Below, one piece after another: positions 166-60,870 of a DNA stretch of 64,000 bases. Source of the DNA: Mobula hypostoma (taxonomy: Eukaryota); contig NC_086097.1 in NCBI RefSeq assembly GCF_963921235.1, positions 22,322,001-22,386,000 on the forward strand, given 5' to 3'. The stretch's first letter is position 1; each line of letters opens with the position of its first letter. The notes below the pieces were generated by a model that worked only from the letters and a program-made list of their open reading frames with translations, was not told the origin of the DNA and searched no databases. A program made the translations under genes and the position numbers.

Positions 166-616
166 ATGCAAACACGAGAAAATCTGCAGATGCTGGAAAC
201 TCAAGCAACACACGCAAAACGCTGGTGGAACGCAGCAGGCCAAGCAGCATCTATAGGAAGAAATACAGTCGACGTTTTGGGTCGAGACCCTTTGTCAGGA
301 CTAATGGAAAAAAGAGATAGTAAGAGATTTGAAAGTGGGAGGGGGAGATCTGAAATGATAGGAGAAGACAAGAGGGAGAGGGATGAAGCCAAGAGCTGGG
401 AAGTTGTTTGGCAAAAGGGATAAGGCTGGAGAAGGGGGAGGATCATAGGACGGAAGGCCTTGGAAGAAAGAAAGGGGGAGGGGAGCACAAGAGGAAGATG
501 GAGAACAGGCAAGGAGTTATTGTGAGAGGGAAAGAGAGAAAAAAAATAAAAATTAGGGATGGAGTAAGAAGGGGAGGGGGGCATTAACCTTCTTACCCCA
601 TCCCTAGTTTTTATTT
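166..616 (-). mobile_element. Penelope-like element pseudo-LTR/3' end with short inverted arm (588-616)
   Basis: Same tail sequence as the GIY-YIG-linked copies at 47355-47735 and 55423-55824. Decayed hammerhead at 266-302. 588-616 is the approximate reverse complement of 543-571. Confidence 0.85.
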
Positions 617-1302
617 ATTTAAACAAAACAAACTGCCAGTGCAAGAACTTTCTCAGCGTTTAACATAGCAAAGAAGCATTCCCAAGTATAACATAACAAA
701 GAAGCCATTTTAATTAGCCTACACAGTAACATAAAGGACAAAACCCCCTTACAAAGCCAACACACCATATACCTTCTCAATCTCCTTAAAAGTAAGGGGA
801 AAGAGAGTGCTCTATCATGCAGCATATTCAAGGCTCCGATCAATAGCTTCTGAGATTCTAACAGTATAGAGACTGGACGAGACAGGACTTTGTCCATGAT
901 TTTATTTAGCTTTATCAGAATTTGATTTCTATTTCTTTGTTACTTCAACAGACAAAAGCAATTATTGATTATCATTTCTTGTTGCTATTGATTTGAATTT
1001 TCAGGATTACTAAATTAGAGCTTTGGAGGCAGATAATTTATCAATCACTATATATCATTCAAACCTTCATTTAATTATCTGTCAAAATGTAAATAAAGTT
1101 AGTCATTAATATATATCTTCTATGTTTTATATTATTCGAGAAAAAGAACTGAAAAAGATTGAAGATGTCCACTTCAGACTGTCAGCTCCATTTTATATCC
1201 TCTGGCCAATGATCACTTTATTATGGAATTCTGAGAATTGCTGATGGAGTTTTTCTTTTTTTCATCATTATGTAAGTGTGAGATCAAATTGACTTTTGTT
1301 AT

Positions 1303-1787
1303 ACTGACTGACCCAGGAATGAAAGGGTTAACACATGAGGAATGTGTGATGGCTCTGGACCTACACTTGCCGGAGTATAGAAGAATGAGAAGGGATCTCA
1401 TTGAAGCCTATCAAATATTGAAAGACCTAAATAGAGGGAAAGTGGAGATGATGTTTCCTGTAGTGGGAGAGTCCAGGACCAGAGGGCACTGCCTCAGAAT
1501 ACAAGGATGTCCCTTTAGAACAGGGATAAGGGGGAAGCTCCAGAAGGTGGCGAATCTGGAATTTATTGTCATATTGTCAATTTATTGTGGAGGACAAGTC
1601 ACAGGGGTATTTAAAGTGGAGTTTGATATATTCTTGATGAGTAAGGGCAACAAAAGTTGCGGGGTGAAGGCAGGTGAATGGGGCTGAGAGGGATAATAAA
1701 TCATTCTTGATGAATTGGTGGAGCAGACTCAATGGGACGAATGACTCTAATTCTGCTGTTATGTCCTCTAGTCTTATGGTTTTATGA
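1303..1787 (+). mobile_element. CR1 LINE 3' fragment (decayed)
   Basis: ORF 1238-1687 reads PGMKGL..EYRRMRRDLIEAYQILK..ESRTRGH, the CR1 ORF2 C-terminus; TCTTATGG-type tail. Confidence 0.85.
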
Positions 1788-1877
1788 CTGATAAAACTGT
1801 CTAATTTTATTGAGTGACAACACAGACTCTGAGAGAAGTGTGATGCTTTCTTTCTTCTCTTCAGTCATACCTTGTAG

Positions 1878-2690
1878 AAGATACCCTGACTGGTTGTGTC
1901 ATGGTCTGGTACAGCAATTCCAATGTGCAGCAGTGTAAGATGTAGCAGAGAGTAGTGGACTCTGTCCAATACATTGCAGGCACACCCCCCCCCCACTTCC
2001 ATCTGTGGTAACTACAGGAGGTGCTGCTTCAAGAATGCAACAGTCATCATCAAAGATCCCCAGCTATCTGGTCCATGCCGTCTTCTCACAGCAGCTATTA
2101 GGAAGAAATCCCACACCACCAGCTACTTCCCTTCGGCTCCAAGAGGACCAGAAACTTGTCGCAGGGTTTGGAGGCTTGCTGGCCTCAAAGGCCCAGAGAG
2201 CTATACTGGCTAGAGTCAGAGCCGTCTACTTTGACTCTTGGTAGAGTCACCTATTCCAAACAGGTCAAAGGGTAGAGGCCAGACTAAGAGTGGTCAACTG
2301 GTCCTCCAGGTTCAGAGGTTCAGCTCAGGACTAGCAACTCTGACTGGTCAAAAATCTTTGTTACGAAAACAGCAAGACATGGAGGACCTTCACTGCTGCC
2401 CTAAACGCCAGCAGTGTAACAGGCAGTAACGACTAACTACTTCTCTTCAATCGTTCAGTACTTAAACCATCCATTAAAACCTGAATCATTACAGTTTGGC
2501 AACACTGTGAAACACTTTGCACTAATATTGATGGGTTTTTTTGGTTCTAATTGTTTTCTTTCTCTGTATAATTAATGTATTTATGTTTTTATATGAATGT
2601 TGCTTATATGATGTTACATATCTGTGAAGCTGCTGCAAGGAAATTTTTCATTGGCCCTGTGTATGCCTATGAGAATAAGCTCAACTTTGC
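1878..2690 (+). mobile_element. Rex1/Babar LINE 3' fragment, interrupted by the 2135-2436 insert
   Basis: Degenerate LTGC..WY.N..QRVVD..IIKDP motif shared with the other Rex copies in the window. Confidence 0.7.
2135..2436 (+). mobile_element. Short non-autonomous RTE-derived retroelement with TSD
   Basis: 12-bp TSD CTACTTCCCTTC (2123-2134) / CTACTTCTCTTC (2437-2448). RTE-like 5'UTR motif (GGTCCTCCAGGTT..GACTAGCAAC..AAAA) joined to an RTE-like 3' end (TGGAGGACCTTCACTGCTGCCCTAAACGCC). Confidence 0.6.
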
Positions 2691-2852
2691 CTTCCCTTAC
2701 AACTGTTTCCATGGACCCCATGGAGTGTTATGGAGTCTTAGACTCAAAGAGATTAAAAGAGCATGGACAGGCCCTCGATTCCCCCGAGTATATACTGATT
2801 GTTGTGGTGGTGGTTGTCCATTGTGTCCGACAATGACAGGAACCAAGGCAGA

Positions 2853-3660
2853 GTTAAGTAGTTACGGCGACCAACAGCGACTCCTTCGCTTGCATCTACA
2901 AAAACAGTTCTATGTCCATCTTTAATATCTCTATTTTTCCCCTTCAGGGTCCTTTTGAAGAACCTGACCTGGAGTTACACGCTGACTACGGTTCTTTGCG
3001 GGAATGGGACCCACTCTTGGGGTTCCACAATCGGCCACTATTTGGCATGCCAAAGGCTTGGCCTAAGATTTCGGCTTGGATTCAGAAGCCTGGGATCTCA
3101 AGGAAATGGAGACGGGCAGATCAAGGGTCGGTGTCGCCACAGGAGGCCCGTGTGTCGTTGGGGGAGTCGGAACATCTGCTGTGTACCTGGGAACCCGGGA
3201 TCTTTGTGATCTTCAGGCACGCAGCTCAAAAAAAGTGACGTTTCGGACTTTTAACGTCATAAACCTGTGAGTTGTTCGTTATGTCTCCCCACTCATTGGA
3301 AAATGGAGTCACCTCTTTCTCCCTTATTAGGTAGAGAAGCCTGCAGCATGTCAGATTATCCGGTGAACAATGTAGTATTTGGGGTAACTGCAAGTCTGTG
3401 TCTTTGCTATTGCTCTGCTCCCGCTTGAGTGCTGGTAGCGGGTGCACTTTATTTTTGCCAGTAGGGGGAGGGGGATTGTTGATCGCTGCTGCTTACATGA
3501 GGGAGAGAGGGGAGCTGGGGCGGGGGACTTTGGGGTTCTAACATTTAACTGTCCTTCATTCTTGGGGCACTCCTCTGTTTTTGTGGATGGTTGTGAAGAA
3601 AAAGCATTTCAAGATGTGTATTGTAGACATTTCTCTGACATTAAATTGTACCTTTGAACC
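2853..3660 (+). mobile_element. Unclassified non-coding interspersed repeat with LINE (Rex/L2-like) tail
   Basis: No credible ORF; ends in GTATTGTAGACATTTCTCTGACATTAAATTGTACCTTTGAACC, resembling the Rex-type tails elsewhere in the window. Family assignment is from pattern only. Confidence 0.4.
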
Positions 3661-4143
3661 TACGTGAAAGAGTTTGTAAAGTGGAAAAGTCATCGCACTG
3701 GGGCAGTTCCACTCTCACTCAGAAGTCATGGTCCAGTGGTACAAGCAAGTGTCACAAACTGGGGTCTTCCTTGGCTGCAGTGGATGACCGTGACATCTTC
3801 TATGCCTTCTTTTGCCTTTTGTTCTCTGTGGAGCGTTGTAGTACCGCCTTGCTGGCTGTTGGATCTCATCCACCCAGTCTGCCAGAGCTGACTTCACATG
3901 CTAGGACAGGCATGTCCCTATCTCATGCGGGTATGGGACCACCTCACGTCACCTGGTTTCACCCGCATATCGAAGCAGTGTACCAGGGTGTGGTCAATGG
4001 TACTTGCAAACAGCTACTTGGAGCCACAGGTGGGAGATGAGTGTCCAGTGGGGACCAAAGGTGAGTGAGCTGCCTCAGAATGGACACGACCTGCCCCTTC
4101 ACCAGTGGTGCTACCCCTTCCGAGACACCCAGTCACCTAGTTA

Positions 4144-4278
4144 CAAACAGGAGAAAATCTGCAGATGATGGAAATCCAAGCAACCCACACACAGAGTGCT
4201 GGAGGAACTCAGCGCTCCATGCAGCATCTCTGGAAAAAAGTACAGTCAACGTTTCGGGCTGAGACCCTTCAGCAAGAC
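4144..4278 (-). mobile_element. Penelope-derived tail copy (hammerhead core mutated)
   Basis: AAATCTGCAGATG..GGAGGAACTCAGC..CAGTCAACGTTTCGGGCTGAGACCCTTC. Confidence 0.8.
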
Positions 4279-4394
4279 AGGTTACAGCATTCCTATATAC
4301 TAATCCTTCTCTAAATACATGTATTCCCATCAATTCCCTCTGGATTCTATCACCCATTTTTCCTCTTAGGACAATTCAAAGCAGTTTGCTATGC

Positions 4395-4512: not shown

Positions 4513-4542
4513 AACAATTCAGCAACAGCTTCTTCTCCTCTG

Positions 4543-4676
4543 CAAACAAGAGAAAATCTGCAGATGCTGGAAATCCAAAGCAACTACACACAAAATACTG
4601 GAGGAACTCAACAGGCCAGGCAGCATCTAAGAAAAGAGTGCAGTCGACATTTCAGGCTAAAACCTTTTGGCAGACT
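4543..4676 (-). mobile_element. Penelope-derived tail copy inserted in a Rex 3' tail (host continues to ~4910)
   Basis: Tail sequence flanked by degenerate repeats CTTCTCCTCTGC / CTTTTCCTTTGC. Confidence 0.7.
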
Positions 4677-5315
4677 TTTCCTTTGCTATCGGATTTCTGA
4701 ATGGACATTGAACTCCTGAACACTACCTCACTACTTTTTTATTTCTACTTTTGCACTACCTATTTAACTATTGAAAATATATATATACTTACTGTAATTC
4801 ACAGTTCTTTTCTCTGAGTTATCATGTATTGCATTGTATTGGTGCCGCAAAGTCAACAAGTTTCACGACATATGCCTGTGATATTAAACCTGATTGTGAT
4901 TCTGCATCTGAAATGTGGGGCAGTAGATGGGTGAGCCACTGTGCAGGTGGGAAGTGAGAAAGCCGCTGTGTCCCAAAGATAAACCTTCCTGTGGAATCAG
5001 AAGGAGTCCCATCACTCCTCGCAACCACAAGGAACTCCCTCCCCCCCAAAGCAGACTTACCCCGGGGCTTTGCTTGAGATGGTAGCTGCCACTAGTAATG
5101 TAACTGAGTTCCAAGCATCATGTCCACTGATAGTGGGTCCTCTTGTTTCAGAACACTGCTTTCATCCTGCTGAGTATGATCACTATCAATGAACCCAAAG
5201 CATATCAGTGTGGATGTAGGGACAGGAGACAGTTCACTGTTTCCATTCATGCTGAAAGTAGCAATACCACAGAATGTTTTGATGTCATATGGCTAACGCA
5301 GGGGTTTCCAACTTG

Positions 5316-5810
5316 GCAACACTCATCAAAGTTGCTGGTGAACGCAGCGGGCCAGGCAGCATCTCTAGGAAGAGGTGCAGTCGACGTTTCAGGCCGAGAC
5401 CCTTTGTCAGGACTAACTGAAGGAAGAGTGAGTAAGAGATTTGAAAGTGGGAGGGGGAGGGGGAGATCCAAAATGATAGGAGGAGACAGGAGGGGGAGGG
5501 ATGGAGCCAAGAACTGGACAGGTGATTGGCAAAGGGGATGTGAGAGGATCATGGGACAGGAGGCCTAAGGAGAAAGAAAAGGGGGAGGGGGGAAAAACCC
5601 AGAGGATGGGCAAGGGGTATAGTGAGAGGGATAGAGGGAGAAAAAGGAGAGAGAGAAAAAGAATGTGTGTATATAAATAAATAACGGATGGGGTACGAGG
5701 GGGAGGTGGGGCATTAGCGGAAGTTTGAGAAGTCAATGTTCATGCCATCAGGTTGGAGGCTACCCAGACGGAATATAAGGTGTTGTTCCTCCAACCTGAG
5801 TGTGGCTTCA
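5316..5810 (-). mobile_element. Penelope-like element 3' end (last GIY-YIG codons plus pseudo-LTR)
   Basis: Minus strand encodes EATLRLEEQHLIFRLGSLQPDGMNIDFSNFR*, followed by the pLTR. Hammerhead at 5378-5414 has CTGACAA (G8 lost). Confidence 0.9.
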
Positions 5811-6126
5811 TGTAATGTTTATATGTTATGCTGTGAGGTTTCAGCTGGGACATTTAGAACCAGAGGTCAGCATCTCAAAAATAAGGGGTCACCCATACAG
5901 GGCATGAGAAATGTCTGCATCCAAGTGGCAGTGAATCCTTGGAATTCTCTACCCAAGGAGACTCATTTTCTGAGCGAGAGAGAGCAATAGATTTTCAGAT
6001 ATTAGAAGGATCAGGGGATGTGGGATTTGTGCGGGGAAGAACCCATCTTCTTACTGAATGGCAGAGCGGGCATGAGGGCTGAATGTTCGACTCCGGCTTC
6101 CTCCCCAAAGCAACATGGATCTACCT

Positions 6127-6237
6127 GCAACACTCAGAAAATGCTGGTGGAATACAGCAGGCCAGGCAGCATCTATGGGAAGAGGCACAGTCGACGTTTT
6201 GGGCTGAGACACTTTGTCAGGACTCACCTCCGTATCA
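6127..6237 (-). mobile_element. 111-bp Penelope-derived mini-element
   Basis: Perfect 10-bp TSD GGATCTACCT (6117-6126 / 6238-6247); contains little more than the decayed hammerhead and the tail. Confidence 0.8.
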
Positions 6238-6309
6238 GGATCTACCTCCCTACAGTATGATCAGAATTGCTTGATCTGAAATAGAAAAGCTTGGTATCTT
6301 ATTCTCAGT

Positions 6310-8837: not shown

Positions 8838-8979
8838 ACCCTCACCTGGATCCACTTATCTCCCACCAGCTCTTGCTTCAACACCCACATACCCCACCCC
8901 ATCTTTTTTATACTGACTATCTTCCTCTTTCTTTCCAGTCCAGATGAAGAGTCTTAAGTCTCAGCCCTGAATATTCACA

Positions 8980-9336
8980 AACAACAGGAATTCTGCAGAT
9001 GCTGGAAATTCAAGCAACACACATAAAAGTTGCTGGTGAATGCAGCAGGCCAGGCAGCATCTCTAGGAAGAGATGCAGTCGACGTTTCAGGCCGAGACCC
9101 TTCGTCAGGACTAACTGAAGGAAGAGTGAGTAAGGGATTTGAAAGTTGGAGGGGGAGGGGGAGATCCAAAATGATAGGAGAAGACAGTAGGGGGAGGGAT
9201 GGAGCCAAGAGCTGGACAGGTGATAGGCAAAAGGGATACGAGAGCATCATGGGACAGGAGGTCCGGGAAGAAAGACAAGGCGGGGGGGGGGACCCAGAGG
9301 AAGGGCAAGGGGTATATTCAGAGGGACAGAGGGAAA
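8980..9336 (-). mobile_element. Penelope pseudo-LTR copy
   Basis: Tail plus pLTR, flanked by ATTCACA (8973-8979 / 9337-9343). Confidence 0.85.
9076..9113 (-). ncRNA. Minimal type-I hammerhead ribozyme motif (core intact)
   Basis: Minus strand reads TAGTC CTGACGA AGGGTCTCGGCCT GAA ACGT C GACTG. Confidence 0.75.
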
Positions 9337-9759
9337 ATTCACAGTCCATTTCCTTTCCCGGGTGCTGCCTGCCCCATGAGATATCCAGCATAATTCCAGA
9401 GTTCCAATATCTTCCGCCTCCCTGCTTTTGTATTTAGATTCAGATGGAGATTTATGTATTTATCACATGTACGTTGAAACATACAATGAAAGATTTCATT
9501 TGCATTAACAACCAACACACCTATGGATGTCCTGGTGGCAACCCAAAGCATTCCCACGCTTTCCGGTGCCAACATAAAATGCCTGTAATGCTCAGCAGGA
9601 TAACAATGAAAACAAAGCAAGCCCCGAAACTCCCTACCAATGCTTACACACTCACCATGCTCCAACCCCAGGACGGGCTGTCTTCAGTCTCCTCCCTCCT
9701 CCAATCCCCAGCAGACGTGTGGATTCGCTAACCGGTACACTACCACCATGATAAAGTAA

Positions 9760-10400: not shown

Positions 10401-10926
10401 AATTGGGTGCACAGCCATCGAACCTCAACTTCTGGACTTCCGAATAACTTTTCGAGCTTTGATCTTTGCTATCGACCCCAGGACTCGCTGATACAAATGA
10501 ATGAGGACTCAGAATGAGAATGCCTTGCATTACATCTCCAACTCTGGTCTCCCTGATTCACGTACCTTGGGGGGCACCGTCACTGTGCCTCCTGCCCCCA
10601 TGGAACTCTGATCCTGGAACCCATTGCTGACTCACTAAGCTGGTGGGGCCACCGGCCCTTGTCCTCACTGGTCTGCTGGTCTGCTGGCCCAACATCCAAC
10701 CATACAGGTCCTTCACTCCAGCTCCACATTACTGGCCTTCAAACGCGGATCGGAGACCGAGACTCCGGCCTGACCTGCAACTCCCCCACATCCCAGTACC
10801 TAAACCCTGGTCTTGTGTTGTTCTGCAGAATCTTGTGTACATGTTACGTTGGCACAGAAATGTGAGGCTACACGTGTGGGCTGACCCCGACATACCCTTG
10901 GGTGAGTTAGTTGTGAATGCAAATGA

Positions 10927-12735
10927 ATGCAGCAGGCCAGGCAGCATCTATAGGAAGATGTACAGTCGATGTTTTGGGCCGAGACCCTTTGTCAGGACTA
11001 ACTGAAAGAAGAGTGAGTAAGAGATTTGAAATTGGGAGGAGGAGGGGGAGATCCAAAATGATAAGAGAAGACAGGAGGGGAGGGGGTAGATCTAAGAGCT
11101 AGAAAGTTGATTGGCAAAAAAGATACCAGGCTGGAGAAGGGAGAGGATCATGGGATGAGAAGCCTGGGGAGAGAGAGAAGGGGAGGGGTTTGGAACATAG
11201 ATTGTTCCACAAGGCCAACAAACCCATACAGGTGTCCATGGCTACACCTTTAGTTTGGAGGAAGTGGGAGGAGCCAAAAGAGAAATTATTAAGAGTAAGG
11301 ACTAATTCTGCTAGACAGAGCAGAGTGGTGGTAGAGGGGAACCGGTTAGGTCTGGAATCCAAAAAGAAGTGGAGAGCTTTGAGATCTTCCTGGTGGGGGA
11401 TGGAGGTATATAGAGACTGAACATTCATGGTGAAAACAAAGCGGTGGGGGCCAGGGAACTTAAAATCATTGAAAAGATTCAGAGCGTCACAAACATAGGT
11501 GGGAAGGGATTGAACAAGGGGGGATAAAACAGTGTTGAGATATGCAGAAATAAGTTTGGTGGGGCAGGAGCAAGCTGAGACAATAGGTCTACCAGGACAG
11601 GCAGGTTTGTGGATCTTGGGTAGGAGGTAGAAACGGGAAGTGCGGGTTGTGGGAACTATAAGGTTGGTAGCAGTGGATGGGAGATCCCCTGAGCGGATAA
11701 AGTCGGTGATGGTGTGGGAGACAATGGCCTGGTGCTCCTTAGTGGAGTCATGATCGAGAGGTAGATAAGAGGAGGTATCTGTGAGTTGACACTGCGCCTC
11801 GGCAAGGTAGAGGTCAGTACGCCAGACTACAACAGCACCCCCCTTATCGGCGGGTTTAATAATAAGGTTAGGATTAGTGCAGAGGGAGTGGAGAGCAGAG
11901 CATTCGGAAGGAGTGAGGTTGGAATGGGAACAAGGTGTGGTGAAGTCGAGACAGTTGATGTCCCGTCGGCAGTTAGCAATAAAGAGATCCAGAGCAGGCA
12001 GAACACCAGAGCGGGGTGTCTATGAAGAGGAGGAGGGTTGAAGATGGGAGAAGGGGTCATTGGTGGGGGTGGGAGAGTCCTTGCCGAAGAAGTGGGCTCG
12101 AAGACGGAGCCGGCGGAAGAAGAGTTCAGCGTCATGGTGTACATGGAACTTGCTGAGGTGTGGGCGAAGGGGGACAAAGGTAAGGCCCTTACTGAGAACA
12201 GAGCGTTCTGCCTCAGAGAGTGGAAGGTCGGAGGGGATAGTGAAGACCCAGCTTGGATGAAAGCTGGGATCAAAAGGGGGAGGGGGAGGGGGAGGGGGGG
12301 GGGGAGAGGGAGGGAGGCAGGTAGTGTCAGTGGAGGGAGAGGGTTGGGGTGAGAGGAAGATAGAGCCTCCCCTCTCCACTAACACTACCAGTCTCCCGCC
12401 CCCCCCCCCCCCCCCCTTCTCTTTCTCCCCAGGCCTCCCATCCCATGATCCTCTCCCTTCTCCAGCCTGGAATCCCTTTTGCCAATCAACTTTCCAGCTC
12501 TTAGATCCACCCCTCCCCTTCTGTCTTCTCCTATCATTTCAGATCTCCCCCTCCCCCTCCCCCTCCCACTTTCAAATCTCTTACTATCTCTTCTTTCAGT
12601 TAGTCCTGACGAAGGGTCCTGGCCCGAAACATCGACTGTACCTCTTTGTATAGATGCTGCCTGGCCTGCTGCGTTCACCAGCACTTTTTGTGTGTGTTGC
12701 TTGAATTTCCAGCATCAGCCGATTTCCTCGTGTCG
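10927..12735 (-). mobile_element. Internally deleted Penelope-like retroelement with inverted pseudo-LTRs
   Basis: Minus-strand PLE motifs LSEAERSVLSKGLTFVP, KPADKG and VQSLYTSIPH..NNFSF..GVAM. A - strand pLTR (10927-11190) and a + strand pLTR (12400-12735). 14-bp TSD GTGAATGCAAATGA (10913-10926) / GTGAGTGCAAATGA (12736-12749). Confidence 0.9.
12601..12638 (+). ncRNA. Minimal hammerhead ribozyme motif (core intact, helix III palindrome broken)
   Basis: TAGTC CTGACGA AGGGTCCTGGCCC GAA ACAT C GACTG. Confidence 0.6.
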
Positions 12736-13154
12736 GTGAGTGCAAATGATGCTTTTCACTATATGTTTCGATGTACACGTGATAAATAACTCTGAATCTG
12801 GTCTCTCCTAGCCTATATCTACATTGACCTTGCTTCTTCTTCCAGCTCTGCTGTAGAAACTGACACCCCCTCACTCTTACCCCATTTCTGAGGATCATTG
12901 ACACAAACGGTCAACTTGTTTCTCTGGCCTCAACTGCTGCTTGACTTGCTGAGTTCCCCTGGCATTTATAACTCTGTATTTTCAGCTTTATAACAATATG
13001 TCCAAGCGGTTTTTAACCGTGAAGACAGACTCTGTTTCTAACACCTTTCCATACAATGAATTAATGGGTTTCTTCATCCTCTGGGCGAAATTCTGATCCT
13101 CATCCTCCCATTAAAATTACTATCAACCACCTTAAATATTTAGTCCTTCTAATT

Positions 13155-14400: not shown

Positions 14401-14594
14401 TACAGAGATGCTTGAAATCTTGAGCAACACTCATGCAACAGTTAGCATCTATGGAGGGAAATAAACAGTCAACATTTTGGGCCACGACTCCATCAGGAAT
14501 GCAAGGACCCTTCCTGATGAAGAGTCTCAGCCTAAAATGTCGACTGTTTATTTCTCCTCACGGAAGCTGCCTGACCTGCTGAGCTCCTCCAGCA
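14401..14594. mobile_element. Old inverted pair of Penelope tail arms
   Basis: Decayed - strand hammerhead (14466-14497) back to back with a decayed + strand hammerhead (14513-14546). Confidence 0.7.
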
Positions 14595-15446
14595 ATCTGC
14601 ACATAGTACAGTGCCGGGGATGATTATTCTATGTGCTATCAATGAAATTATCCATTTCACTTTTAATGGGATGAAATAATGAGTTTTGATAAACCTGCTG
14701 TAGAGAAGCAAGAATAGTCTTAAGTGCTTCTCTAACCTGCTCAAGAGACGTATTTTTGGACAGACTTCTGATGAAGTTGGTCCTAAATGTTAAATAGTGA
14801 GTGACATTCAATTTTTGGTCTCTAATGTCCTACAATGTCTCTTCGTTACTCCACCTGCAATTAATCAATAGAAGGTTTATCTTATTTATCCAGTCTGAGG
14901 ACATTAATGAAAATGATGAGATCATGTTGTGTGGCCTCCTAAACTAATTTGCTATCTGCACAGAACTCAACTAATCGCACACCCCAATTACTAGTCGCTG
15001 ATAGCTGTCCAAATGAAAAACTTGCGAGGAGCTTAAAGCTCACTGTCTAATTTTGGACCGATATGACCTTGAATAGGACGGTGTTTGTCAATTTACCTTG
15101 AAAATTAAATCTAACTTACTTCAAAATCCAATAAGCTTAATATGTCACCAGAGTTTTGGGATGTTTAGTTGCAAAAAGCCTTTGTCCATAGTGTCTTTAC
15201 AGTGACTGTGGTACATTCAGAAGCAAGTGATTGTTGGGGAAGCACCATTGGTATTTTGTATATCCATTCATAGAATGTTTACGTTAGGATCAGAGCTGGC
15301 ATCTATTGTCTATCATTAATTGCACCTCGAACTAAACATCTCACTAGAGCGTAGAAAAGATTCAGCTACATTGATGGGTCAGGAGTCACATATAGGCCAG
15401 AACTATATGTTCTTTATGACAATCCAGTAACCTAATGCTCACCATT

Positions 15447-16071
15447 ATAGAAACATAGAAACATAGAAAATAGGTGCAGGAGTAGGCCATTCGGCCCTTC
15501 GACCCTGCACCGCCATTTATTATGATCATGGCTGATCATCCAACTCAGAACCCCGCCCCAGCCTTCCCTCCATACCCCCTGACCCCCGTAGCCACAAGGG
15601 CCATATTTAACTCCCTCTTAAATATAGCCAATGAACTGGCCTCAACAGTTTCCTGTGGCAGAGAATTCCACAGATTCACCACTCTCTGTGTGAAGAAGTT
15701 TTTCCTAATCTCGGTCCTAAAAGGCTTCCCCTCTATCCTCAAACTGTGACCCCTCGTTCTGGACTTCCCCAACATCGGGAACAATCTTCCTGCATCTAGC
15801 CTGTCCAATCCCTTTAGGATCTTATACGTTTCAATCAGATTCCCCCTCAATCTTCTAAATTCCAACGAGTACAAGCCCAATTCATCCAGTCTTTCTTCAT
15901 ATGAAAGTCCTGTCATCCCAGGAATCAATCTGGTGAACCTTCTTTGTACTCCCTCTATGGCAAAGACGTCTTTCCTCAGATTAGGGGACCAAAACTGCAC
16001 ACAATACTCCAGGTGTGGTCTCACCAAGGCCTTGTACAACTGCAGTAGTACGTCCCTGCTCCTGTACTCGA
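15447..16071 (-). mobile_element. Relatively young CR1 3' fragment
   Basis: Uninterrupted 164-aa ORF 15545-16039 (YKALVRPHLEYCVQFWSP..RTRGHSLRI..FFTQRVVNLWNSLP); (ATAGAAAC)n tail. Confidence 0.92.
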
Positions 16072-16087
16072 ATTATTGAGTCCATAC

Positions 16088-19050: not shown

Positions 19051-19459
19051 TGGACGTGTGAGGAAGGAAGTAAATCTATAATTTTCTTTTTCTGTTTTTG
19101 AGATGCTTTCGCATTCGTGTTTTGGTAGCAGCACCCAATCACATCCCAAATCACTTCAAATGTAATGGAGTTCATCCAAAGTGTTGCTGCTGTGTAAATG
19201 GACTGTAACTTGCCTTAAAGCTATGGAACAAGATCACAACTTACTCCCTCGAGTTGAGGCTTTAAGTCTCAGGGTAAGGCCGCTGAATCAGAGTCAGAAG
19301 CAGGTTTATTGCCACTAGCGGCACAGTGGTGAAATGATTAGCGTTGTTACAGCAACACACACAAAATGCTGGAGGAACTCAGTAGGTCAGACAACATCTA
19401 TGGAAATGAATTAACTGTCAACGTTCTTCAGAACTGAGAAGGAAGGGGGAAGTACTATA

Positions 19460-34845: not shown

Positions 34846-35100
34846 ATACAAGAGGTCGTGCAGATGCTAGAAATCCAGAGTAATACACAGAAAGTGCTGG
34901 AGCATCTATAGAAAGGGATAAACAGTTAATGTTTTGAGCTGAGACCCTTCGTCAGGACAGGGAATGAAGGAAGAAGAAGCCAAAATGAGAAGGTGGGGGC
35001 AGGGGAAGGAGTACGAGCTATACAAGGTGATATGTTAAGCCAGTTGAGAAAGAAGTTAGTTTGGAGGGGGAAGGGGGATGAAGTGAGAAGCTGGGAGGTG
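34846..35100 (-). mobile_element. Old Penelope-derived tail copy (in the putative intron)
   Basis: TGCAGATGCTAGAAATCC..GAGACCCTTCGTCAGGAC. Confidence 0.75.
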
Positions 35101-46939: not shown

Positions 46940-47735
46940 TTGATCTCCCTCCTGGCACTTATCCTTACAGACGGAACAAGTGCTACACCTGCTTCCTACC
47001 ATTCAGGGCCCCAAGCAGTCCTTCCAGGTGAGGCGCCACTTCACCTGTGAATCTGTTGGGGTTATATACTGTGTCTGGTGCCCCTGGTGTGGCCTCCTGT
47101 ACATCGGTGAGATCCAACGTTGATTGGTAGACCACTTCAACGAGCACCTACGCTACATCTGCCAGAAAAAGCAGCATCTCCCAGTGGCCACCCATTTTAA
47201 TTCCACTTCCTATTCCCATTCCAATATGTCTATCCATGGCCTCTTCCACTGTCGCAATGAGGCCACACTCAGCTTGGAGGAATAATACCTTGTATTCCGT
47301 CTGGGAAGCCTCCAACCTGATGGCATGAACATCAATTTCTCAAACTTCCGGTAATGCCCCCTACCCTCTTCTTCACCATTTTCCATCCACTTTTCCCGCT
47401 CCCATGTTATCTCCTTGCTTATCCATCACCTCCCTCTGGTGCTCCTTCCCCCTTTTCTTTCTTTCGTGGCCTTCTGTCCTCTTCTATCAGACTCCCCCTT
47501 CTCCAGCCCTATATCTCCTTCACCAATCAACTTCCCAGCTCTTCACTTCATCCCTACCCCTTCGGGTTTTCACCTATCACCTTGTGCTTTTCTCTCCCCT
47601 CTCCCCACCTTTTAAATCCACTCCTCAGCTTTTTTTCCTCCAGTCCTGCCAATCGGTCTCGGCCCGAAACGTTGACTGTACTCTTTGTCCATAGATGCTG
47701 CCTGGCCTGCTGAGTTCCTCCAGCATTTTGTATGT
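46940..47735 (+). mobile_element. Penelope-like element 3' part: GIY-YIG endonuclease plus pLTR
   Basis: FTCESVGVIYCVWCPWCGLLYIGE..HFNEH..PVATHFN..LGSLQPDGMN with in-frame stops; hammerhead at 47641-47678 has a mutated core. Confidence 0.92.
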
Positions 47736-50700
47736 GCCATATGTAGATTGGTGCATGCAATGTGGGCTGGTGAGTCACTTCTGCAGACAGTACACAGTGG
47801 AGGGGACAGTGAAAGACCATCAGTTGTGCAAGATCAGCCCCATAGGCTCAGGTTCAGGTATGGAGCTTCAGCTGAGCCCAGTGACCCTAACGCTGAGCTC
47901 AATCAACTGAGTGTCGGGATTACCCAGCAGATGTACCTACTCCTTGATCTTGGTGCAAAGGCAGTCACCGCCATCATCAGTTTGTGCTGGGTGCCATCAT
48001 AAAATACTGAAACCAGTGAGTGATGTGCTGTTGATAAAGACCAGAGCTACACTGCAGATAGCTGGGAAATGCATTCTCAACCTGGTGAACACAAAGAATC
48101 AGAGAACCAAGGAACATAGAGTAGGCTAGACCCGAACACACAGCACTGGAGACGACTTAGTGGTGAGTGATAACTTCAATAAAACACTGCAGAATAACAA
48201 GCAACGAGGGGCCAAAAGAACAAGCGAGAACAGCTACTTAACACAACAAAGCAACAAGGTAATGAAGGTGAGGAGAAGCTGATTAAGGCTGTCTGGTTTG
48301 TATGAGCGAACAAGGATGAGAGCTGAGTTTAGACAGGCTGCAGGTGAAAAGTTGGAAATGAGTGGCGGGTGACTCCTGTTAGCTGGGTAGAGACTGAGAG
48401 GAGTTTTCATGTGCAGACCTGACAGGACGCACCCCCCCCACCCCCAGCAGCCGGCCTCCGATGGCCCAGGATGATTGGGATGTGCCCAGTGGAACTCCTT
48501 GATGAGCGATAGATCCAAGACATGGTTGGACGGCACCCAAGACCTCTCCTCCGGCCACGCCCTTCCCAGTCAACCAGGTTCTGCACTCGCATCACAATGG
48601 CGTGAATCGATCAACCACTGGAGCACATGTGCCGGACCACCTCCCATCTTCCTCGGTTCGGGAGAGGCGCACTCAGGTGGGCTGAGTGAGACACAAACAA
48701 CAAGCTTGAGACAGGACACCTGGAATCCTGTGTGGTCCTGAGGGATAATGGCTGTTGGAGACGGTAAGTGACTGGGTTGAGGCGATGGGTAATCTTAAAG
48801 GGACTCATGAACCAGGGCGAGAGGCTGCAGGAGCTGGTGCACAGGGGCAGATCTCGGGTCAATGGCCGGAGGGGTCTGGCTGGGCACCGATAGCAGTTAC
48901 CTTGGTGGCAGTAGGTGCGGTTGGCAGCTAGGATGGTCCTTTTCCAAACAATCCAGGGCTCTGGTCAACCGCTGGCTCCTTCACGGGGAACAATAGAGGT
49001 TGGTAACCATGAAAAACTGCAAAGGAGTGACATACCCATGGCAGTGGAGGTGTTTAGATTGTGGGACAGCTCAGCCCAGAGCAGATGCTTCCTCCAAGTG
49101 GAAGGGTTAGAGGCGGTGAAGCATAGCAGAATCTTCTTTGTTTGCTGATTGGTTCCTTCTGACTCTCCACTCATCTACGGATAGTAGCCAGAGGACAAAC
49201 TCACCGAGGCACAGAGGAGGGAGCAAAAGGCTCACCAGAAAGCATGGGACGAATGGTGGGCCCCGGTCCGACACAACGTCCTGGGGGTAGCTGTGGAGGT
49301 GAACTACATGTTGGAAAACCAGGTCCGCTGTCTCAGCGGCTGATGGAAGTTTGGGGAGAGCAATGAAATGGGATGCCTTGGAGCACCGGTCCACCACTGT
49401 CGTGATCACTGTGGCTCCATCCGATGATGGGAAACCCACGGTGAAACTGATGACGATATGGGAGCACAGGCATCCAGGGATCAGCAGAGGCTGCAGACCA
49501 GGGGGACTGAGCACACTGAGGGCAGGCAACGATGAATTGACATACATCTGCGAACATGGTGAGCCACCGGAACCAGTGTCACAGAAAATCCAGGGTCCGT
49601 TGTGCGTCAGAATCAAAGAAGGGTGAAGGGTCAGGTGGAGTGCCTCAGAGCACATGGCAACCAGCATGTTCATTTGGCTGTCTGATGTGTCAGCCAAAGC
49701 AGTCTCTTACTGTCCGGCTTGGCTAATCTGGTTCTCAATGTCCTGTGATCAGGATGAGGTTCGGGGGGTTGCAATGATGGGCTCAGGGTTGATCTCTGTT
49801 TCAGCTGGGTCGAACTGTCTTGACAGGGCATCCGTCTTCATGTTCTTGGAGCAGGGTCAGTAGGGTATGGTGAAGACGAACTGCTCAGGGTAGCAGGCAC
49901 AGTGAGCCTGACGTGGGTCGAGTTAGCGGGTCTGCTGAATGTATATGAGTTTCTTGTGGTCAATCCAGACCAGGAAGGGCTTGATGTTCTCCACCAGTTA
50001 ATATCTCCATTCCTCCAAGGCCCACTTAATGGAGAATAGCTCCCTGTCTCCTACTCCATAACGGCGATGTGTAGAGTGAACTTGCCCACGAAGATGGCAC
50101 GAGGGTGTGTATTCCAGTCCAGTCCTCTCTTGAAGATGATGGCCCTGGCGCCCACGCCAGATGCATTCAACTCTACCACGAAAGATCAGGAGGGGTTTGG
50201 GTGGTGGAGAATGGGAGCAGTGGTGAAGTGCCTCTTGAGCTCCTCAAACATGTGGTGTGTGAGGTAGGTGACTTGGTGAGGGAGCTGAGAGGGGCGGCGA
50301 ATTGGCTGTCATTTCTAATGAACCGGAGGTGAAACTGGAATAGCCCAAGAAGCACTGTAGCTGTTTAAGGAGCATGGTCAGGGCCCTTCAACGACAGTGA
50401 GGACATTCTCTGAGTCTATGGTTATACTTTGGGGTGAAGGGACATAACCCAGGAAGGAAATGACTGGGTTGTCGAACTGATATTTTTCTAACTTGCGGTA
50501 CAGTTGGTTTTCGAGAAGGAAACCACCTGAAGGACTGATCGGACACGATAGATGTGGTCTTGAGGGTCACTGAAGGAGATGAGGATGTCCTCAAGGTAGA
50601 CAATCACATACCCGTGGGCGATGGGCAGCTTCGCACTGAGTGCACAAGTTGTTTCTCCACTGATCCTCATGCTCTTGCAGGTGCTAAAGAAGCTCTCGCT

Positions 50701-52880: not shown

Positions 52881-52899
52881 CACTTTAAAACTATCCAAG

Positions 52900-53260
52900 T
52901 TAACTCCGTTCACTTCCCTCTTTTTCTATTCCCACTATTCTTTTTCTATTTATCTTCTCAGCCCTTCTCTTTTCCTCACCTGCTCATCACCTCATTCTGG
53001 TGCCCTTCCTCCATCCCTTTCTCCCATAGTCCACTCTCCTCTCCTATTAAGTTCCTTCTTTTTCAGCCCTTTTCTTCTTCTATCTAACACCTTCCAGCTT
53101 CTCACTTCATTCCCCTCCCCCCACCCCCCACCTTCCCCATCACCCTCCTTCCCCTCCCCCTACCTTCTTAGTCTGGCTTCCTCTCCTTCCCTTTCCGGTC
53201 CTGATGAAGAGTCTTGGCTGTAAACATTGACTCTTCATAGATGTTGCCTGACTTGCTAAA
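52900..53260 (+). mobile_element. Old Penelope pseudo-LTR copy
   Basis: Pyrimidine-rich pLTR followed by GTCCTGATGAAGAGTCTTGGC (decayed hammerhead). Confidence 0.65.
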
Positions 53261-54375: not shown

Positions 54376-54406
54376 TGAAGTAATAAAAGTAAAGACAAAC
54401 TATGTA

Positions 54407-55171: not shown

Positions 55172-55824
55172 CGCAAACACGAGGAAATCTGCAGATGTTA
55201 GAAATTCAAGCAACACACATCAAAGTCTGCCAGAAAAAGCAGGATCTCCCAGTGGCCACACATTTTAATTCCACATCCCATTCCCATTCCGATATGACTA
55301 TACATGGCCTCCTCTACTGTAAAGATGAAGCCACACTCAGGTTGGAGGAACAACACCTTATATTCCGTCTGGGTAGTCTCCAGCCTGATGGCATGAACAT
55401 TGACTTCTCAAACTTCTGCTAATGCGCCACATCCCCCTCGTACCCCATCCGTTATTTATTTAGATACACACATTCTTTTTCTTTTTCTCTCTCTCCTTTT
55501 TCTCCCTCTGTCCCTCTGACTATACCCCTTGCCCATCCTCTGGATTTCCCCCCCTCCCCCTTTCCTTTCTCCCTAGGCCTCCTGTCCCATGATCCTCTCA
55601 AATCCCTTTTGCCGATCACCTGTCCAGCTCTTGGCTCCATCCCTCCCCCTCCTGTCTTCTCCTATCATTTCGGATCTCTCCCTCCCGCTCCCACTTTCAA
55701 ATCTCTTACTAGCTCTTCTTTCAGTTGGTCCTGACGACGGGTCTCGGCCCGAAACGTCGACTGTACCTCTTCCTAGAGATGCTGCCTGGCCTGCTGCGTT
55801 CACCAGCAACTTTGATGTGTGTTG
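55172..55824 (+). mobile_element. 5'-truncated Penelope-like element with inverted tail at the 5' junction
   Basis: GIY-YIG C-terminus PVATHFN..LGSLQPDGMNIDFSNF plus pLTR; inverted tail 55174-55226; TSD CCACCAGGTTCAGG (55158-55171) / CCACCGGGTTCAGG (55825-55838). Confidence 0.92.
55726..55763 (+). ncRNA. Minimal type-I hammerhead ribozyme motif (best-preserved copy)
   Basis: TGGTC CTGACGA C GGGT CTCG GCCC GAA ACGT C GACTG; predicted cleavage 3' of C55758. Confidence 0.8.
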
Positions 55825-56635
55825 CCACCGGGTTCAGGAACAGTTATTACCCCTCATCCATCAGGCTCTTGAACCAGATGCCTCAGGACCCACACCACCA
55901 GGTTCAGGGACAGCTATTAGGCCTCAACCATCAGGTTCTTGAACCAGAGGGGATAACTTCACTCAACTTAACTCATTGCATCACTGAACTATTCCCACAA
56001 CCTATGGACTCACTTTTAAGGACTCTTCATTTCATGTTTTTGATAATTTTTTCTTATCAATATTACCTTTGTATTTTTTTTCTCATTCTCAAGCTGGTAA
56101 AACCTGATATACAGGCAAAGCCAAACATAGTCATTTATCAATTGTTCGGAATTTACAGACTATTCTTGATGGTTGATATAGTGGGTTTCTAGGGATTTAC
56201 ATAAATATTGTTGTTTAGACTTAATTGTTTAACACTATTGCATGGTGACTTTAGGATGATCCCAGTAGTAGATATTACTATTGGAACAATGTATACCCTG
56301 TTCATGTTCCAAAGTCTTTCAATTTCCTTTTTTAATTCAGCATATTTCTGATGTTTTTCACTTATTAATTTTGTATATTATGTGTGTTTGGAATGGTTAT
56401 ATCTATTAAATATATTGTTCTTGCTTGTTTACCCTGTAATATTATATCCATACAGTTATTATGGATTGCCCTATCTGCAATAATAGATTGATCACAAAAT
56501 AATGTGTGGGACATTGACTGGATCAGGCCTGTATTTATAGTAAGGTATGGCGTCTTTTATGACCTTATTCTTTAGAGTAAGGTATGGTGTACTTTATAGT
56601 AAGGTATGGTGTCTTTTATGACTTTGTACTTTGGG

Positions 56636-57005: not shown

Positions 57006-58952
57006 CAGGAAACAGGAGGGGCTCATGATAAATATAGGGTAGCCAGGAAGGAGCTTATGAAAGGACTTAGGAGAGCTTGAAGGGGGCATGAGAAGGCCTT
57101 GGCATGTAGGATTAAGGAGAACCCCAAGGCGCTCTATGCGTATGTGAAGAACAGAAGGATGAGAAGAATGAAGGTGGGGCCGCTAAAGGATAAAGAAGGC
57201 AACATGTGCCTGGAGGCAGAGGAGGTTGGGGAGGTCCTAAATGAATACTTTGCTTCAGTATTCACAAGTGAAAAGGACCTTGATCAGGGTGAGGTCGAAA
57301 TAGAACAGGCCTGTGTGCTGGACAGTGGGGAGATTAAGGAAGAAGAAGTGTTCTTAAGATCTTCTTAAAAACATCAAGATTGATAAGTCCCCAGGGCCGG
57401 TCGTGATATACCCCAGGTTGCTGTGGGAAGTGAGAGAAGAGATCGCTGGAGCAGTAGCTATGATCTTTGAATCTTCTTTGGCAGCAGGGGAGGTGCCGGA
57501 GGATTGGAGAATGGCAAATGTAGTTCCCTTGTTTAAAAAAGGTAATAGGGAGAATCCTGGGAACTATAGATCAGTGAGTCTTACATCGGTGGTCTGCAAA
57601 CTATTGGAAAGGATTCTTAAGGATAGGATCTACGAACATTTGGAGAAGTACAGTCTACTCAAGGATAGTCAACATGGCTTTGTGAAGGGAAGGTCGTGCC
57701 TCACGAGCCTAATTGAGTATTTTGAAGAGGTAACAAAAGAAAGTGATGAGGGTAGGGCGGTAGATGTGGTCTACATGGATATTAGCAAGGCATTTGACAA
57801 GGTCCCCCACGAGAGACTCATCCAGAAAGTCATGAGGCATAGGATCAGTGGAACCTTGGCTGTTTGGATAAAAAATTGGCTTACAGGAAGAAAGCAGAGG
57901 GTAGTAGTGGAAGGAAAGTTTTTGCCTGGAGGTCGGTGACTAGTGGAGTGCAGCAAGGATCTGTCCTGGGTCCCCTGCTCGTTGTGATTTTTATAAATGA
58001 CCTGGATGAAGAGGTGGAAGGATGGGTGAGTAAGTTTGTGGATGACACGAAGATTGGAGGAGTTGTGGATGGAGTTGTAGGTTGTCGAAGGTTACAAGAG
58101 GATAAAGACAAGATGCAGAGTTGGGCAGAAAAGTGGCAGACGGAGTTCAATCTGGATAAGTGTGAGGTGATGCATTTTGGAAGGACAAACCAGAAGGCTG
58201 AGTACAGGGTTAATGGTCGGTTACTTAAGAGTGTGGATGAACAGAGTGACCTTGGGGTTCAAATCCATACATCCCTCAAGGTCACTGCACAGGTTGATAG
58301 GATAGTTAAGAAGGCCTATGGGATGCTAGGCTTCATTAATGGGGGGATTGTTCAAGATAGAGAGGTCATGTTGCAACTCTACAAATCTCTGGTGAGACCG
58401 CACTCACAGTATTGTGTTCAGTTCTGGTCACCTCAGTATAGGAAGGATGTGGAAGCTATGGAGAGGGTGCAGAGGAGATTTACCAGGATGTTGCCTGGAT
58501 TGGAAAACAGGTCTTATGAGGCAAGGATAGCAGAGCTATGTCTTTTCTCTTTGGAGCATAGAACGATCAGAGGGGACTTGATAGAGGTCTACAAGATTAT
58601 GAAAGGCATAGATAGGGTGGATAGCCAGTACCTGTTTCCCAGGGCACGAATAACAAATACCAGAGGGCATATGCACAAAATTAAGGGAGGGAAGTTTAGG
58701 GTAGACATCAGGAGTAAGTTTTTTACACAGAAGGTTGTGGGTGCCTGGAATGACTTGCCAGGGATGGTGGTGGAGGCTAAAACATTAGGGGTATTTAAGA
58801 GCCTCTTGGACAGGCACATGGATGAAAGAAAAATAGAGGGTTACGGGGTAGTGTGGGTTTAGTACTTTTTTTTAAGGAATATATGGGTCGGCACAACATC
58901 GAGGGCCAAAGGGCCTGTACAGTGCTGTAGTATTCTAGTGTCTAGTGTCTAG
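57005..58952 (+). mobile_element. CR1 LINE ORF2 RT about 1.95 kb
   Basis: ORFs 57403-57939 and 57864-58862: PGNYRSVSLTSVV, KAFDKVPH, QGSVLGP, KFVDDTK; (CTAGTGT)n tail. Confidence 0.95.

Positions 58953-60215: not shown

Positions 60216-60217
<2 letters not shown>

Positions 60218-60253
<36 letters not shown>
60218..60253. repeat. (TG)18 microsatellite
   Basis: Direct reading. Confidence 0.95.
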
Positions 60254-60254
<1 letters not shown>

Positions 60255-60483
60255 TTGGGGGGGTGGGGTGTTCTTTTTCCTCCCTCATCCAGCTTGCTTC
60301 TTGGTTGTGTGTCACCCTGTTTGACCAGATATTAGACCAAAAGTTGATAATCTCTATTTCTGGGAATTCTGTGCTAGGGTTAGTGACACTTTGATATGTC
60401 GAATTGATTCATTTATAGAATCACATTCACAGTAGAACAAAGAAATACAATGGAATTACAGGCAGCATCTCTAGGAAGAGGTA

Positions 60484-60521
60484 CAGTTGATGTTTCGGGC
60501 TGAGACCCTTCATCAGGACTA
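60484..60521 (-). ncRNA. Hammerhead motif (core intact; stem I first pair and helix III mutated)
   Basis: Minus strand TAGTC CTGATGA AGGGTCTCAGCCC GAA ACAT C AACTG. Confidence 0.5.
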
Positions 60522-60832
60522 ACTGAAGGAAGAGCTAGTAAGAGATTTGACAGTGGGAGGGGGAGGGGGAGGGGAGGGGGAGATCCAAAATGATAGGAGA
60601 AGACAGGAGGGGAGGGATGGAGCCAAGAGCAGGACAGTTGATTGGCAAAAGGGATATGAGAGGATCATGGGACAGGAGGCCCAGGGAGAAAGAAAAGGGG
60701 AAGGGGGGAAAACCCAGAGGATGGGCAAAGGGTATAGTGAGAGGGACAGAGGGAGAAAAAGGAGAGAGAGAGAAAGAATGTGTATATATAAATAAATAAC
60801 GGATGGGGTACAAGGGGGAGGTGGGTTTCAGT

Positions 60833-60870
60833 TAGTCCTGACGAAGGGTCTCGGCCTGAAACGTTGACTG
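60833..60870 (+). ncRNA. Hammerhead motif (core intact, GUU triplet)
   Basis: TAGTC CTGACGA AGGGTCTCGGCCT GAA ACGT T GACTG. Confidence 0.7.

Follow-up and report, generated by a model that had tools for sequence, protein, structure and literature searches.

In the window, by which we mean the whole 64-kb stretch of DNA analyzed, a minimal type I hammerhead motif (min-HHR) occurs in 18 good copies, found by a gapless scan combined with gapped alignment. The gapless scan, with window copy 55725-55764 as the query, returned 15 matches at ≤12 mismatches and copy 4640 at 16 mismatches; a further match at 40000 was at chance level. Across 20 dinucleotide shuffles of the window, the mean number of matches was 0 at ≤15 mismatches and 0.15 at ≤16. 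Gapped alignment, for which the null had a 99th percentile of 25 and a maximum of 33 of 2000, rescued copies 4641 (score 71) and 14466 (score 47) and gave a score of 42 to a copy without helix II at about 19376-19439 on the minus strand. Copy 8936 scored 19, under the 95th percentile of the null, and is doubtful. A first-pass annotation of this DNA had listed 18 positions and claimed about 16 motifs. Seventeen of these positions hold up, the one at 8936 is doubtful, and the copy near 19,400 had been missed; the coordinates and strands were correct, as was the placing of H17 of the best copy at 55758. An Rfam scan of the window gave 36 matches at E ≤ 1 with no hammerhead family among them, and no host exon was recognized among the 11 ORFs scanned (out of 48 of ≥120 amino acids, partly with other frames or bounds). 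The miRNA-type Rfam matches were G/C-run hairpins around 12,250-12,450 and 540-620. The copies and the Penelope-like element (PLE) sequences that carry them are as follows (pLTR, pseudo-LTR; EN, endonuclease).

96..151, minus strand: decayed HHR fragment
164..545, minus strand: older PLE 3' end with tail; HHR 265-304 with G8A and G12A
4143..4278, minus strand: decayed HHR with tail
4541..4673, minus strand: decayed HHR with tail
5314..5811, minus strand: PLE 3' end (EN end, UTR, HHR with G8A) with a short terminus
6127..6227, minus strand: short copy beginning at the HHR 5' edge; G8A, G12A
8936..8971, plus strand: doubtful 5' half of the motif, not above the null
8975..9337, minus strand: tailed PLE 3' end whose min-HHR (9076-9113) has an intact core and palindrome and G10.1·U11.1
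10924..12739, both strands: single rearranged PLE insertion with a target duplication of at least 9 bp, made of pLTR 12404-12739 (plus), RT fragment 12369-11192 (minus) and pLTR 11188-10924 (minus), the last containing a dead HHR at 10962-11001 (G8A, G12A)
12601..12638, plus strand: min-HHR with core boxes intact and palindrome lost (ACAU)
14432..14595, both strands: old inverted pair with decayed HHRs (14432-14498 minus; 14512-14595 plus)
19351..19439, minus strand: extra decayed copy with helix II missing, absent from the first-pass list
34901..34974, minus strand: decayed HHR (G12A)
46941..47736, plus strand: old PLE 3' end, about 72% identical to a young unit; decayed HHR 47640-47679
53195..53257, plus strand: decayed HHR (G12T)
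55173..55827, plus strand: 5'-truncated PLE insertion flanked by a target duplication, containing the next feature
55726..55763, plus strand: min-HHR that retains the core and the ACGU palindrome, with G10.1-C11.1 and a cut predicted after C55758
60459..60969, both strands: single PLE insertion with inverted arms that pair together (60459-60825 minus; 60826-60969 plus with tail) and a 12-bp target duplication
60484..60521, minus strand: min-HHR that retains the core boxes but has lost the palindrome (ACAU) and has a broken 1.1-2.1 pair
60833..60870, plus strand: min-HHR with core and palindrome intact, G10.1·U11.1, H17 = U at 60865

The type I core (C3 U4 G5 A6 N7 G8 A9 ... G12 A13 A14 A15.1, with U16.1 and H17) is complete in 5 of the 15 window copies scored. 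Intact copies have a helix I of 4 to 5 bp that closes the ends and a helix II of 4 bp, and the family motif has an extra base between 9 and 10.1, which is a C in copy 55725. The core boxes, helices I and II, the extra base, and the palindrome bear out the initial reading of the motif, made from sequence, as a minimal type I hammerhead. Five copies had been called intact. CUGANGA, GAAA, and UH are present in all five, but the ACGU palindrome is present in only three: copies 12600 and 60483 have ACAU instead and have lost the dimer palindrome, and in 60483 (minus strand) the pair 1.1-2.1, beside the cut, is broken as well. On paper, the dimer-competent copies would be 9075 (minus), 55725 (plus), and 60832 (plus). 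Copies 9075 and 60832 have G10.1·U11.1 in place of G-C. Among 31 distinct family boxes, this pair is G-C in 14 and G·U in 15, and the palindromic 15.2-16.2 (CG) is present in 22. Since 80 of the first 100 genomic intact copies listed have G·U at 10.1-11.1, as does every flanking motif in the five two-HHR units, the ribozyme of the youngest master may work poorly.

The good window copies are terminal repeats of 5'-truncated PLE insertions. Insertion 55173..55827 runs from an inverted tail (55173-55226) through a GIY-YIG C terminus (89% identity with intact-ORF residues 973-1042), a stop at 55422, a pyrimidine-rich UTR, and the HHR to a short 3' end (H17+67). Intact units elsewhere in the genome have a motif–ORF (RT and GIY-YIG)–motif layout of about 3.5 kb, are sometimes tandem, and carry the PLE 34-nt tail. 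Their order is HHR, 139 nt, ATG, RT, Zn-finger-like linker, GIY-YIG, a UTR of about 300 nt, and HHR, in partial or full tandems. Ten long loci were fetched, chosen for long open frames; in five of them the HHRs are spaced 3,512-3,519 nt apart, and one locus (L031) is a trimer. In the intact ORF, residues 534-696 matched Pfam RVT_1 (E 3e-5) and residues 946-1022 matched GIY-YIG (E 4e-4); each match is slightly below the Pfam cutoffs, which a homologue (P0034) passes for both domains. The ORF also has a CCHH motif (C-x2-C between the GVIY and YIG stretches plus two downstream His), and the linker cysteines C910, C915, and C918 are nearly invariant in 25 homologues. Partial tandems forming pLTRs, inverted 5' copies, and the PLE tail are all present in the family. 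The Penelope-like carrier proposed earlier is thus supported by the RT and GIY-YIG ORF, the pLTR layout, and the tail. A tandem array of the non-LTR retrozyme type, with an HHR per short noncoding unit, is absent from the window, where the copies map to the coding unit. Taken together, the sequence evidence indicates a PLE that bears an endonuclease and has amplified recently, probably in a cartilaginous fish, with the motif as the minimal type I hammerhead of its pseudo-LTR.

Across the superfamily, a descriptor that required helix pairing, but not the palindromic spacer, the extra base, or G10.1-C11.1, gave 29 matches, 26 of them in the sense orientation of the ORF, spread over 25 of 80 distant PLE loci, and none in 10 shuffles. 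Among the 26 distinct distant motifs, 22 have a Watson-Crick palindromic spacer, 24 have the extra base, and 23 have G10.1-C11.1. Their helices contain many pair types, though pairing was demanded by the descriptor. Within the family, two-sided covariation amounts to one case among the 31 distinct boxes, in a decayed copy.

Genome-wide, at least 56,057 copies retain both core and palindrome, as had been anticipated from the density of the motif in the window, and the strand counts of intact copies are symmetric. The N7-G8 CpG is CG in 52,143 copies, TG in 5,747, and CA (G8A) in 3,777. Catalytic G8 has decayed in 6.1% versus 9.3% for its neutral CpG partner; these rates are near each other, and no postinsertion selection on the core is seen in the N7-G8 CpG counts. 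The 1.5-fold excess of TG over CA could reflect some selection in master lineages or sequence context only; the loop CpG is skewed the opposite way (10 CA versus 4 TG in 100 rows). Judged by sequence and predicted folds, the window copies resemble remnants in decay, and cleavage of host RNA by them seems unlikely.

Copies end at two 3' sites, about 68 and about 102 nt past the cut base: 31 of 43 non-read-through 3' ends lie at +64 to +71 (11) or +95 to +108 (20). These ends match the 30- to 40-bp tail and internal RT initiation of PLEs (PMC8557442; PMC11167929). We infer that reverse transcription begins at these two sites, directly downstream of the ribozyme. Every insertion, however 5' truncated, would then carry the motif, which would explain its density.

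If cut RNA commonly served as the template, 5' truncations would pile up at the cut site. We rejected this candidate: genome-wide, 406 of 65,786 copies (0.62%) break there, versus 1,267 of 103,989 (1.22%) at a control inside helix II, with no excess at the cut site. True cut-site truncations should be fewer than counted, because among the first 100 cut-site rows about 16 are inversion joints running across the helix I arms and some 8 are apparent core deletions. Somewhat more breaks fall at the HHR 5' edge (1,401 versus roughly 62,000-65,000 copies, about 2%); these per-position end profiles are based on three pattern windows. One nearby short insertion (L020) starts 3 nt past the cut base, not at it. 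The genome-wide counts thus provide a usable negative, with cut-RNA-templated insertions making up no more than about 2% of copies. The absence of a cut-site excess is in line with findings on the anole PLE, for which uncut RNA is the main substrate and cleavage requires the protein (PMC11167929).

In folding models, the best monomer fold pairs the core GAYG with CGUC, and in most copies this inactive hairpin is more stable than the hammerhead skeleton by about 4 kcal/mol. Helix I has a probability of ≤0.03 in 120 nt of native context. A competing upstream register of helix I was rejected (p ≤ 0.01). For palindrome-intact copies, the catalytic dimer came to −12 to −18 kcal/mol versus −20 to −30 for two monomers and −28 to −38 for a noncatalytic duplex. 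The catalytic dimer is thus predicted to be less stable than either, by nearest-neighbor models that ignore core contacts. Copies 12600 and 60832 have 39 of 40 nt paired to an antisense copy within their own insertion, and cofolding pairs most bases of the 55725 box with a nearby antisense copy. The first-pass annotation had proposed that three intact plus-strand copies could cleave plus-strand transcripts or pair in trans. This is not supported: one lacks the palindrome, and all three are predicted to be locked in antisense duplexes.

Our best model is that the motif would weakly mark tandem PLE transcripts for processing, assisted by dimerization or by protein. In such a transcript, two motifs would swap strands via the ACGU palindrome and cut weakly, probably aided by the element's own protein, to trim the precursor RNA. 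Cleavage by min-HHR dimers is attributed to Lünse et al. (2016/17) as cited in a review (PMC6765202). Most insertions would be copied from uncut RNA, and inserted copies would be inert and decay neutrally. As a whole, a PLE pLTR ribozyme that gives a weak, assisted processing signal and is inert and neutral after insertion is an account that we consider quite probable.

The motif might instead be a catalytically spent relic, either kept as a structure near the RT start or a protein-binding site or hitchhiking beside the RT start. This would fit the predicted inactive hairpin in most monomers, the drift of the young subfamily to G·U at 10.1-11.1, the lack of a cut-site excess, and the normal in vitro insertion of anole PLE HHR mutants (PMC11167929). 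However, core bases and palindrome are retained in older and young family copies alike, as well as in distant relatives with wholly different helices, and G·U at 10.1-11.1 also occurs in published cichlid and Xenopus min-HHRs (PMC4209133). We therefore view a spent relic as possible but rather unlikely.

It is improbable that a 3' splice site 5' of helix I masks the core so that only spliced PLE RNA folds the ribozyme. The intron of the Drosophila virilis Penelope does end at helix I (PMC4209133). In the family studied here, a branch-like heptamer and a pyrimidine tract precede a CAG ending 6 nt before C3; of 53 copies, 38 have the heptamer variant ending in CTCAC and 3 have the CTAAC variant. 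Most context folds pair the tract with the core, removal of the tract lifts p(helix I) to 0.64-0.70 for 9075 and 55725, and breaks at the HHR 5' edge are somewhat more frequent. On the other hand, the GT donor at the ORF end is absent in 35 of 36 copies, and the branch-to-AG distance is only about 12 nt, which is short by usual splicing rules. Distant relatives have no such acceptor before helix I, the inactive core hairpin dominates even without the tract (p 0.72-0.98), and the edge excess is modest, with many such junctions being inversion joints. None of the 15 contig joints listed, out of 47, supports an intron: those running from 1871-1878 to 2179 retain the AG and were rejected as splicing, and we take them for older subfamilies whose UTR has diverged. 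Four contigs aligned to the unit had no pile-up of starts or stops, which contigs would not reveal in any case, and a steep depth drop at the tail end was not counted as RNA evidence. Were such gating real, the tens of thousands of near-identical intact copies would allow a direct test of the time of cutting in vivo.

Very improbable, finally, is a genome-wide RNA cleavage load in which dispersed intact copies either act in cis on plus-strand host transcripts, cutting them as long-range dimers, or pair in trans: the abundance of intact copies, the 5.1-kb spacing of 55725 and 60832 on the same strand with palindromes intact, and a plus-strand multi-LamG gene that begins about 115 kb past the window, which makes plus-strand transcription possible, stand against the predicted sequestration of 55725 and 60832 by antisense arm 60459-60825 and of 12600 by 10924-11188, the improbable local helix I, the symmetric counts by genomic strand, and published min-HHRs whose monomers did not cleave and whose dimers cleaved only at low levels (PMC4209133).

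The family adds a cartilaginous-fish member to a described class, with an unusually large load; its importance is modest, and its youth and intact tandem units make it well suited to tests of what PLE hammerheads do. Min-HHRs in the pseudo-LTRs of metazoan PLEs have been published (Cervera and De la Peña 2014, PMC4209133), and ours share their sequence (CUGANGA followed by an additional base, a helix II that starts with G, GAAA-CG-UH, no helix III, and a short helix I) and context (pLTR location, mostly single truncated copies, and opposite-strand pairs 100-700 bp apart). In contrast, helix II here is short, at 4 bp, and in the young subfamily its basal pair is G·U; cartilaginous fish are absent from the 56 motifs of Fig. 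S3 and from Table S1 of that work; and our count far exceeds the copy numbers of about 4,000 in Latimeria and about 9,000 in Xenopus, obtained by a different method. Poseidon PAc of Anolis carolinensis (Frangieh et al. 2024, PMC11167929) likewise has RT with C-terminal GIY-YIG, tandem pLTRs, and, downstream of the HHR, two sites at which RT starts and which set the tail, as the 3' ends suggest for our family. PAc RT starts 111-118 nt into the ORF and the cut is at +26, the ORF beginning inside the HHR, whereas here the ATG is 139 nt past the cut, beyond the tail, and the ORF linker is of the Neptune/Nematis type. The Neptune clade (Craig et al. 2021, PMC8557442) shares the Zn-finger-like linker between RT and EN, and the HHR of a 49% identical homologue (L047) is one base off the published Acropora digitifera Neptune HHR (PMC4209133, Table S1). 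The apparent likeness to Neptune comes from these two features, and the linker is common to Nematis. Animal non-LTR retrozymes, reported in one Chondrichthyes genome, also have a type I HHR from PLE pLTRs (bioRxiv 10.64898/2026.07.22.740005; PMC7229834); they are short noncoding tandem arrays, whereas the copies in the window lie scattered and represent truncated ends of an element that is coding.

The first-pass annotation had reported a recurring hammerhead-like motif in the window. Using the 40-nt copy at 55725-55764 as the query, a gapless scan of both strands returned 15 copies with no more than 12 mismatches; 20 dinucleotide shuffles gave no match with up to 15. Gapped alignment brought in the copies at 4641 and 14466 and one near 19,400 that had been missed, so that the real copies number 18; the listed copy at 8936 did not exceed the null in this alignment. 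Base-by-base scoring took in 15 of the 18 and found all core boxes kept in five, as annotated, with C55758 again the predicted cut base of the best copy, 55725. Two of the five, 12600 and 60483, carry ACAU in place of ACGU and therefore lack the dimer palindrome, and the pair beside the cut is also broken in 60483. An Rfam scan of the window produced no model catching the minimal hammerhead form. Motif positions below follow general hammerhead numbering.

Every motif copy was placed within one common longer repeat. At 55,226-55,422, this repeat starts with a GIY-YIG C-terminus that matches the terminal part of an intact ORF at 89% identity, and a reverse transcriptase (RT) fragment lies at 12,369-11,192. 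The RT piece had 38,129 first-look candidates in the 3.48-Gb genome, of which 140 were scored. Of ten long loci picked for long open frames, five contained units of 3,512-3,519 nt in which the ORF is flanked by two hammerheads, and one of these five is a head-to-tail trimer. The frame encodes 1,043 residues with RT and GIY-YIG domains (each slightly below the Pfam cut-off), a C-x2-C between GIY and YIG, and a zinc-finger-like linker, a feature assigned to Neptune and Nematis by Craig et al. (PMC8557442). Among named homologues the best match comes from Chiloscyllium punctatum (72%), which points to a cartilaginous-fish host. The Penelope-like carrier that had been proposed is supported, and the motif is the minimal hammerhead ribozyme (min-HHR) of a Neptune-like Penelope-like element (PLE), present in unusual abundance. 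At locus L037:1692-6569, a 1,625-residue open frame has the PLE ORF at its end, a 5'-truncated PLE in frame with upstream sequence.

The window also contains other repeats. The first set listed we take to be CR1-like by appearance.

Other repeats in the window
15545-16072, 20253-21707, 23656-26121, 57358-58862 and others: many decayed LINE fragments with RT
40400-43894 (-) and 27318-28178 (+): L1/Tx1-like LINE remains with Exo_endo_phos and zf-RVT matches
49107-49706 (-): decayed LTR-retroelement fragment with a weak integrase (rve) match, in a GC-richer stretch

A neurexin-like run of LamG-domain exons occupies 22.50-24.55 Mb on the + strand (from G000:C1:22,501,319 in the genome). Some 115 kb separate the window from the first LamG exon detected downstream; the window could lie upstream of this + strand gene or within a 5' UTR intron.

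The very high copy number suggested earlier held up genome-wide. There were 6,605 matches to the exact 34-nt pattern, 56,057 to a pattern requiring core, palindrome and both helices, and 103,989 to a CpG-tolerant 3'-half pattern, with none to reversed controls. Because the CpG-tolerant pattern recovers 5 of the 18 window copies, a rough extrapolation from this one window gives several hundred thousand motifs.

We aligned 54 3' ends away from locus edges; 11 read on into the next ORF. Among the 43 left, 11 ended 64-71 nt and 20 ended 95-108 nt past the cut base, a spacing that is the optional ~34-nt PLE tail, traced to two internal RT start sites by Frangieh et al. (PMC11167929). The cut base is followed 139 nt later by the first conserved ATG. 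For both opposite-strand pairs, 12600/10962 and 60832/60483, the two members belong to a single insertion that has inverted arms and is flanked by a target duplication, a known PLE structure (PMC8557442). RT would start just downstream of the motif, so that even very short insertions would carry it, which may explain the motif density. Across the genome, many inverted 5' arms are joined via the ribozyme's own self-complementary stretches: helix I arm joints made up about 16 of the first 100 cut-site breaks listed, and similar joints occur at the helix II/GAAACG region among the helix II breaks. This suggests that the motif is a site of fold-back or template switching. At the inversion joint of one PLE insertion (L029:2372-2838), a unit of ~95 nt is reiterated in tandem several times. 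In the 10924-12739 insertion, the joint carries a G-run/C-run hairpin (12294-12415), which accounts for spurious miRNA-family matches.

We ran a descriptor on 80 metagenome loci encoding distant PLE relatives. It required pairing but not the spacer, the extra base, or G10.1-C11.1. Of 26 distinct motifs, 22 had the palindromic spacer, 24 carried the extra base and 23 showed G10.1-C11.1. Helix pair types, where pairing was demanded, were highly varied. The motif was sense to the ORF in 26 of 29 matches, and ten shuffles gave none. Within the family, one-sided CpG decay accounted for nearly all changes, and a single change among 31 distinct boxes was two-sided. The young subfamily carries a G·U at 10.1-11.1, found in published min-HHR members too (PMC4209133); it stood in 80 of the first 100 matches listed for the pattern requiring core, palindrome and both helices, and in all five two-HHR units.

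Three results indicate that inserted copies are probably not active. First, the N7-G8 CpG was intact in 52,143 copies, harmlessly changed in 5,747 and lethally changed (G8A) in 3,777; the core thus decays close to the neutral rate, and the 1.5-fold skew falls within context effects at the loop CpG. Second, 5' breaks fell at the cut site in 406 of 65,786 copies (0.62%), compared to 1,267 of 103,989 (1.22%) inside helix II and 1,401 (about 2%, on an approximated denominator) at the motif's 5' edge. Given a detection chance of about 0.32 for this design, cut-templated insertions amount to about 2% at most. Third, in folding models that leave out core tertiary contacts and proteins, the monomer favored an inactive hairpin, helix I in its 120-nt context formed with p≤0.03, and non-catalytic pairings were more stable than the catalytic dimer. 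The annotation had suggested that + strand copies could cut + strand transcripts or pair in trans, which is not supported. On a + strand transcript, 12600 and 60832 were each predicted to pair with their inverted partners along 39 of 40 nt, and 55725 cofolded with the same antisense arm as 60832. The window copies are most likely inert.

The boldest reading, which we consider improbable, is that an acceptor-like site before helix I gates the ribozyme, its tract masking the core. A branch-like heptamer is followed by a pyrimidine tract and a CAG that stops right before helix I, and the tract masks the core in predicted folds, but the inactive hairpin remains in folds without it. Judged by usual splicing distances, the branch distance is short; a GT donor is missing at the ORF end in 35 of 36 copies, and the site is not conserved in distant relatives. 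The Drosophila virilis Penelope intron does end at helix I (PMC4209133). Some 20 nt past the cut site (L033:2215-2236 and window copies) lie a second acceptor-like pyrimidine tract and AG, followed by an ATG with a frame that terminates inside the tail.

The annotation was right about the motif, which belongs to a known kind. Our search of the openly searchable literature, which excludes subscription papers and Repbase, found no publication on this particular PLE family. Cervera and De la Peña give counts of ~4,000 min-HHRs for Latimeria and ~9,000 for Xenopus, with cartilaginous fish absent among the species they list (PMC4209133); a 2026 preprint describes PLE-derived retrozymes in one chondrichthyan (bioRxiv 10.64898/2026.07.22.740005). 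Published min-HHRs are described as not cutting as monomers and cutting poorly as dimers (PMC4209133; review PMC6765202), and the anole PLE ribozyme as cutting only with its protein (PMC11167929). One distant relative has a hammerhead nearly identical to that published for Acropora Neptune (PMC4209133).
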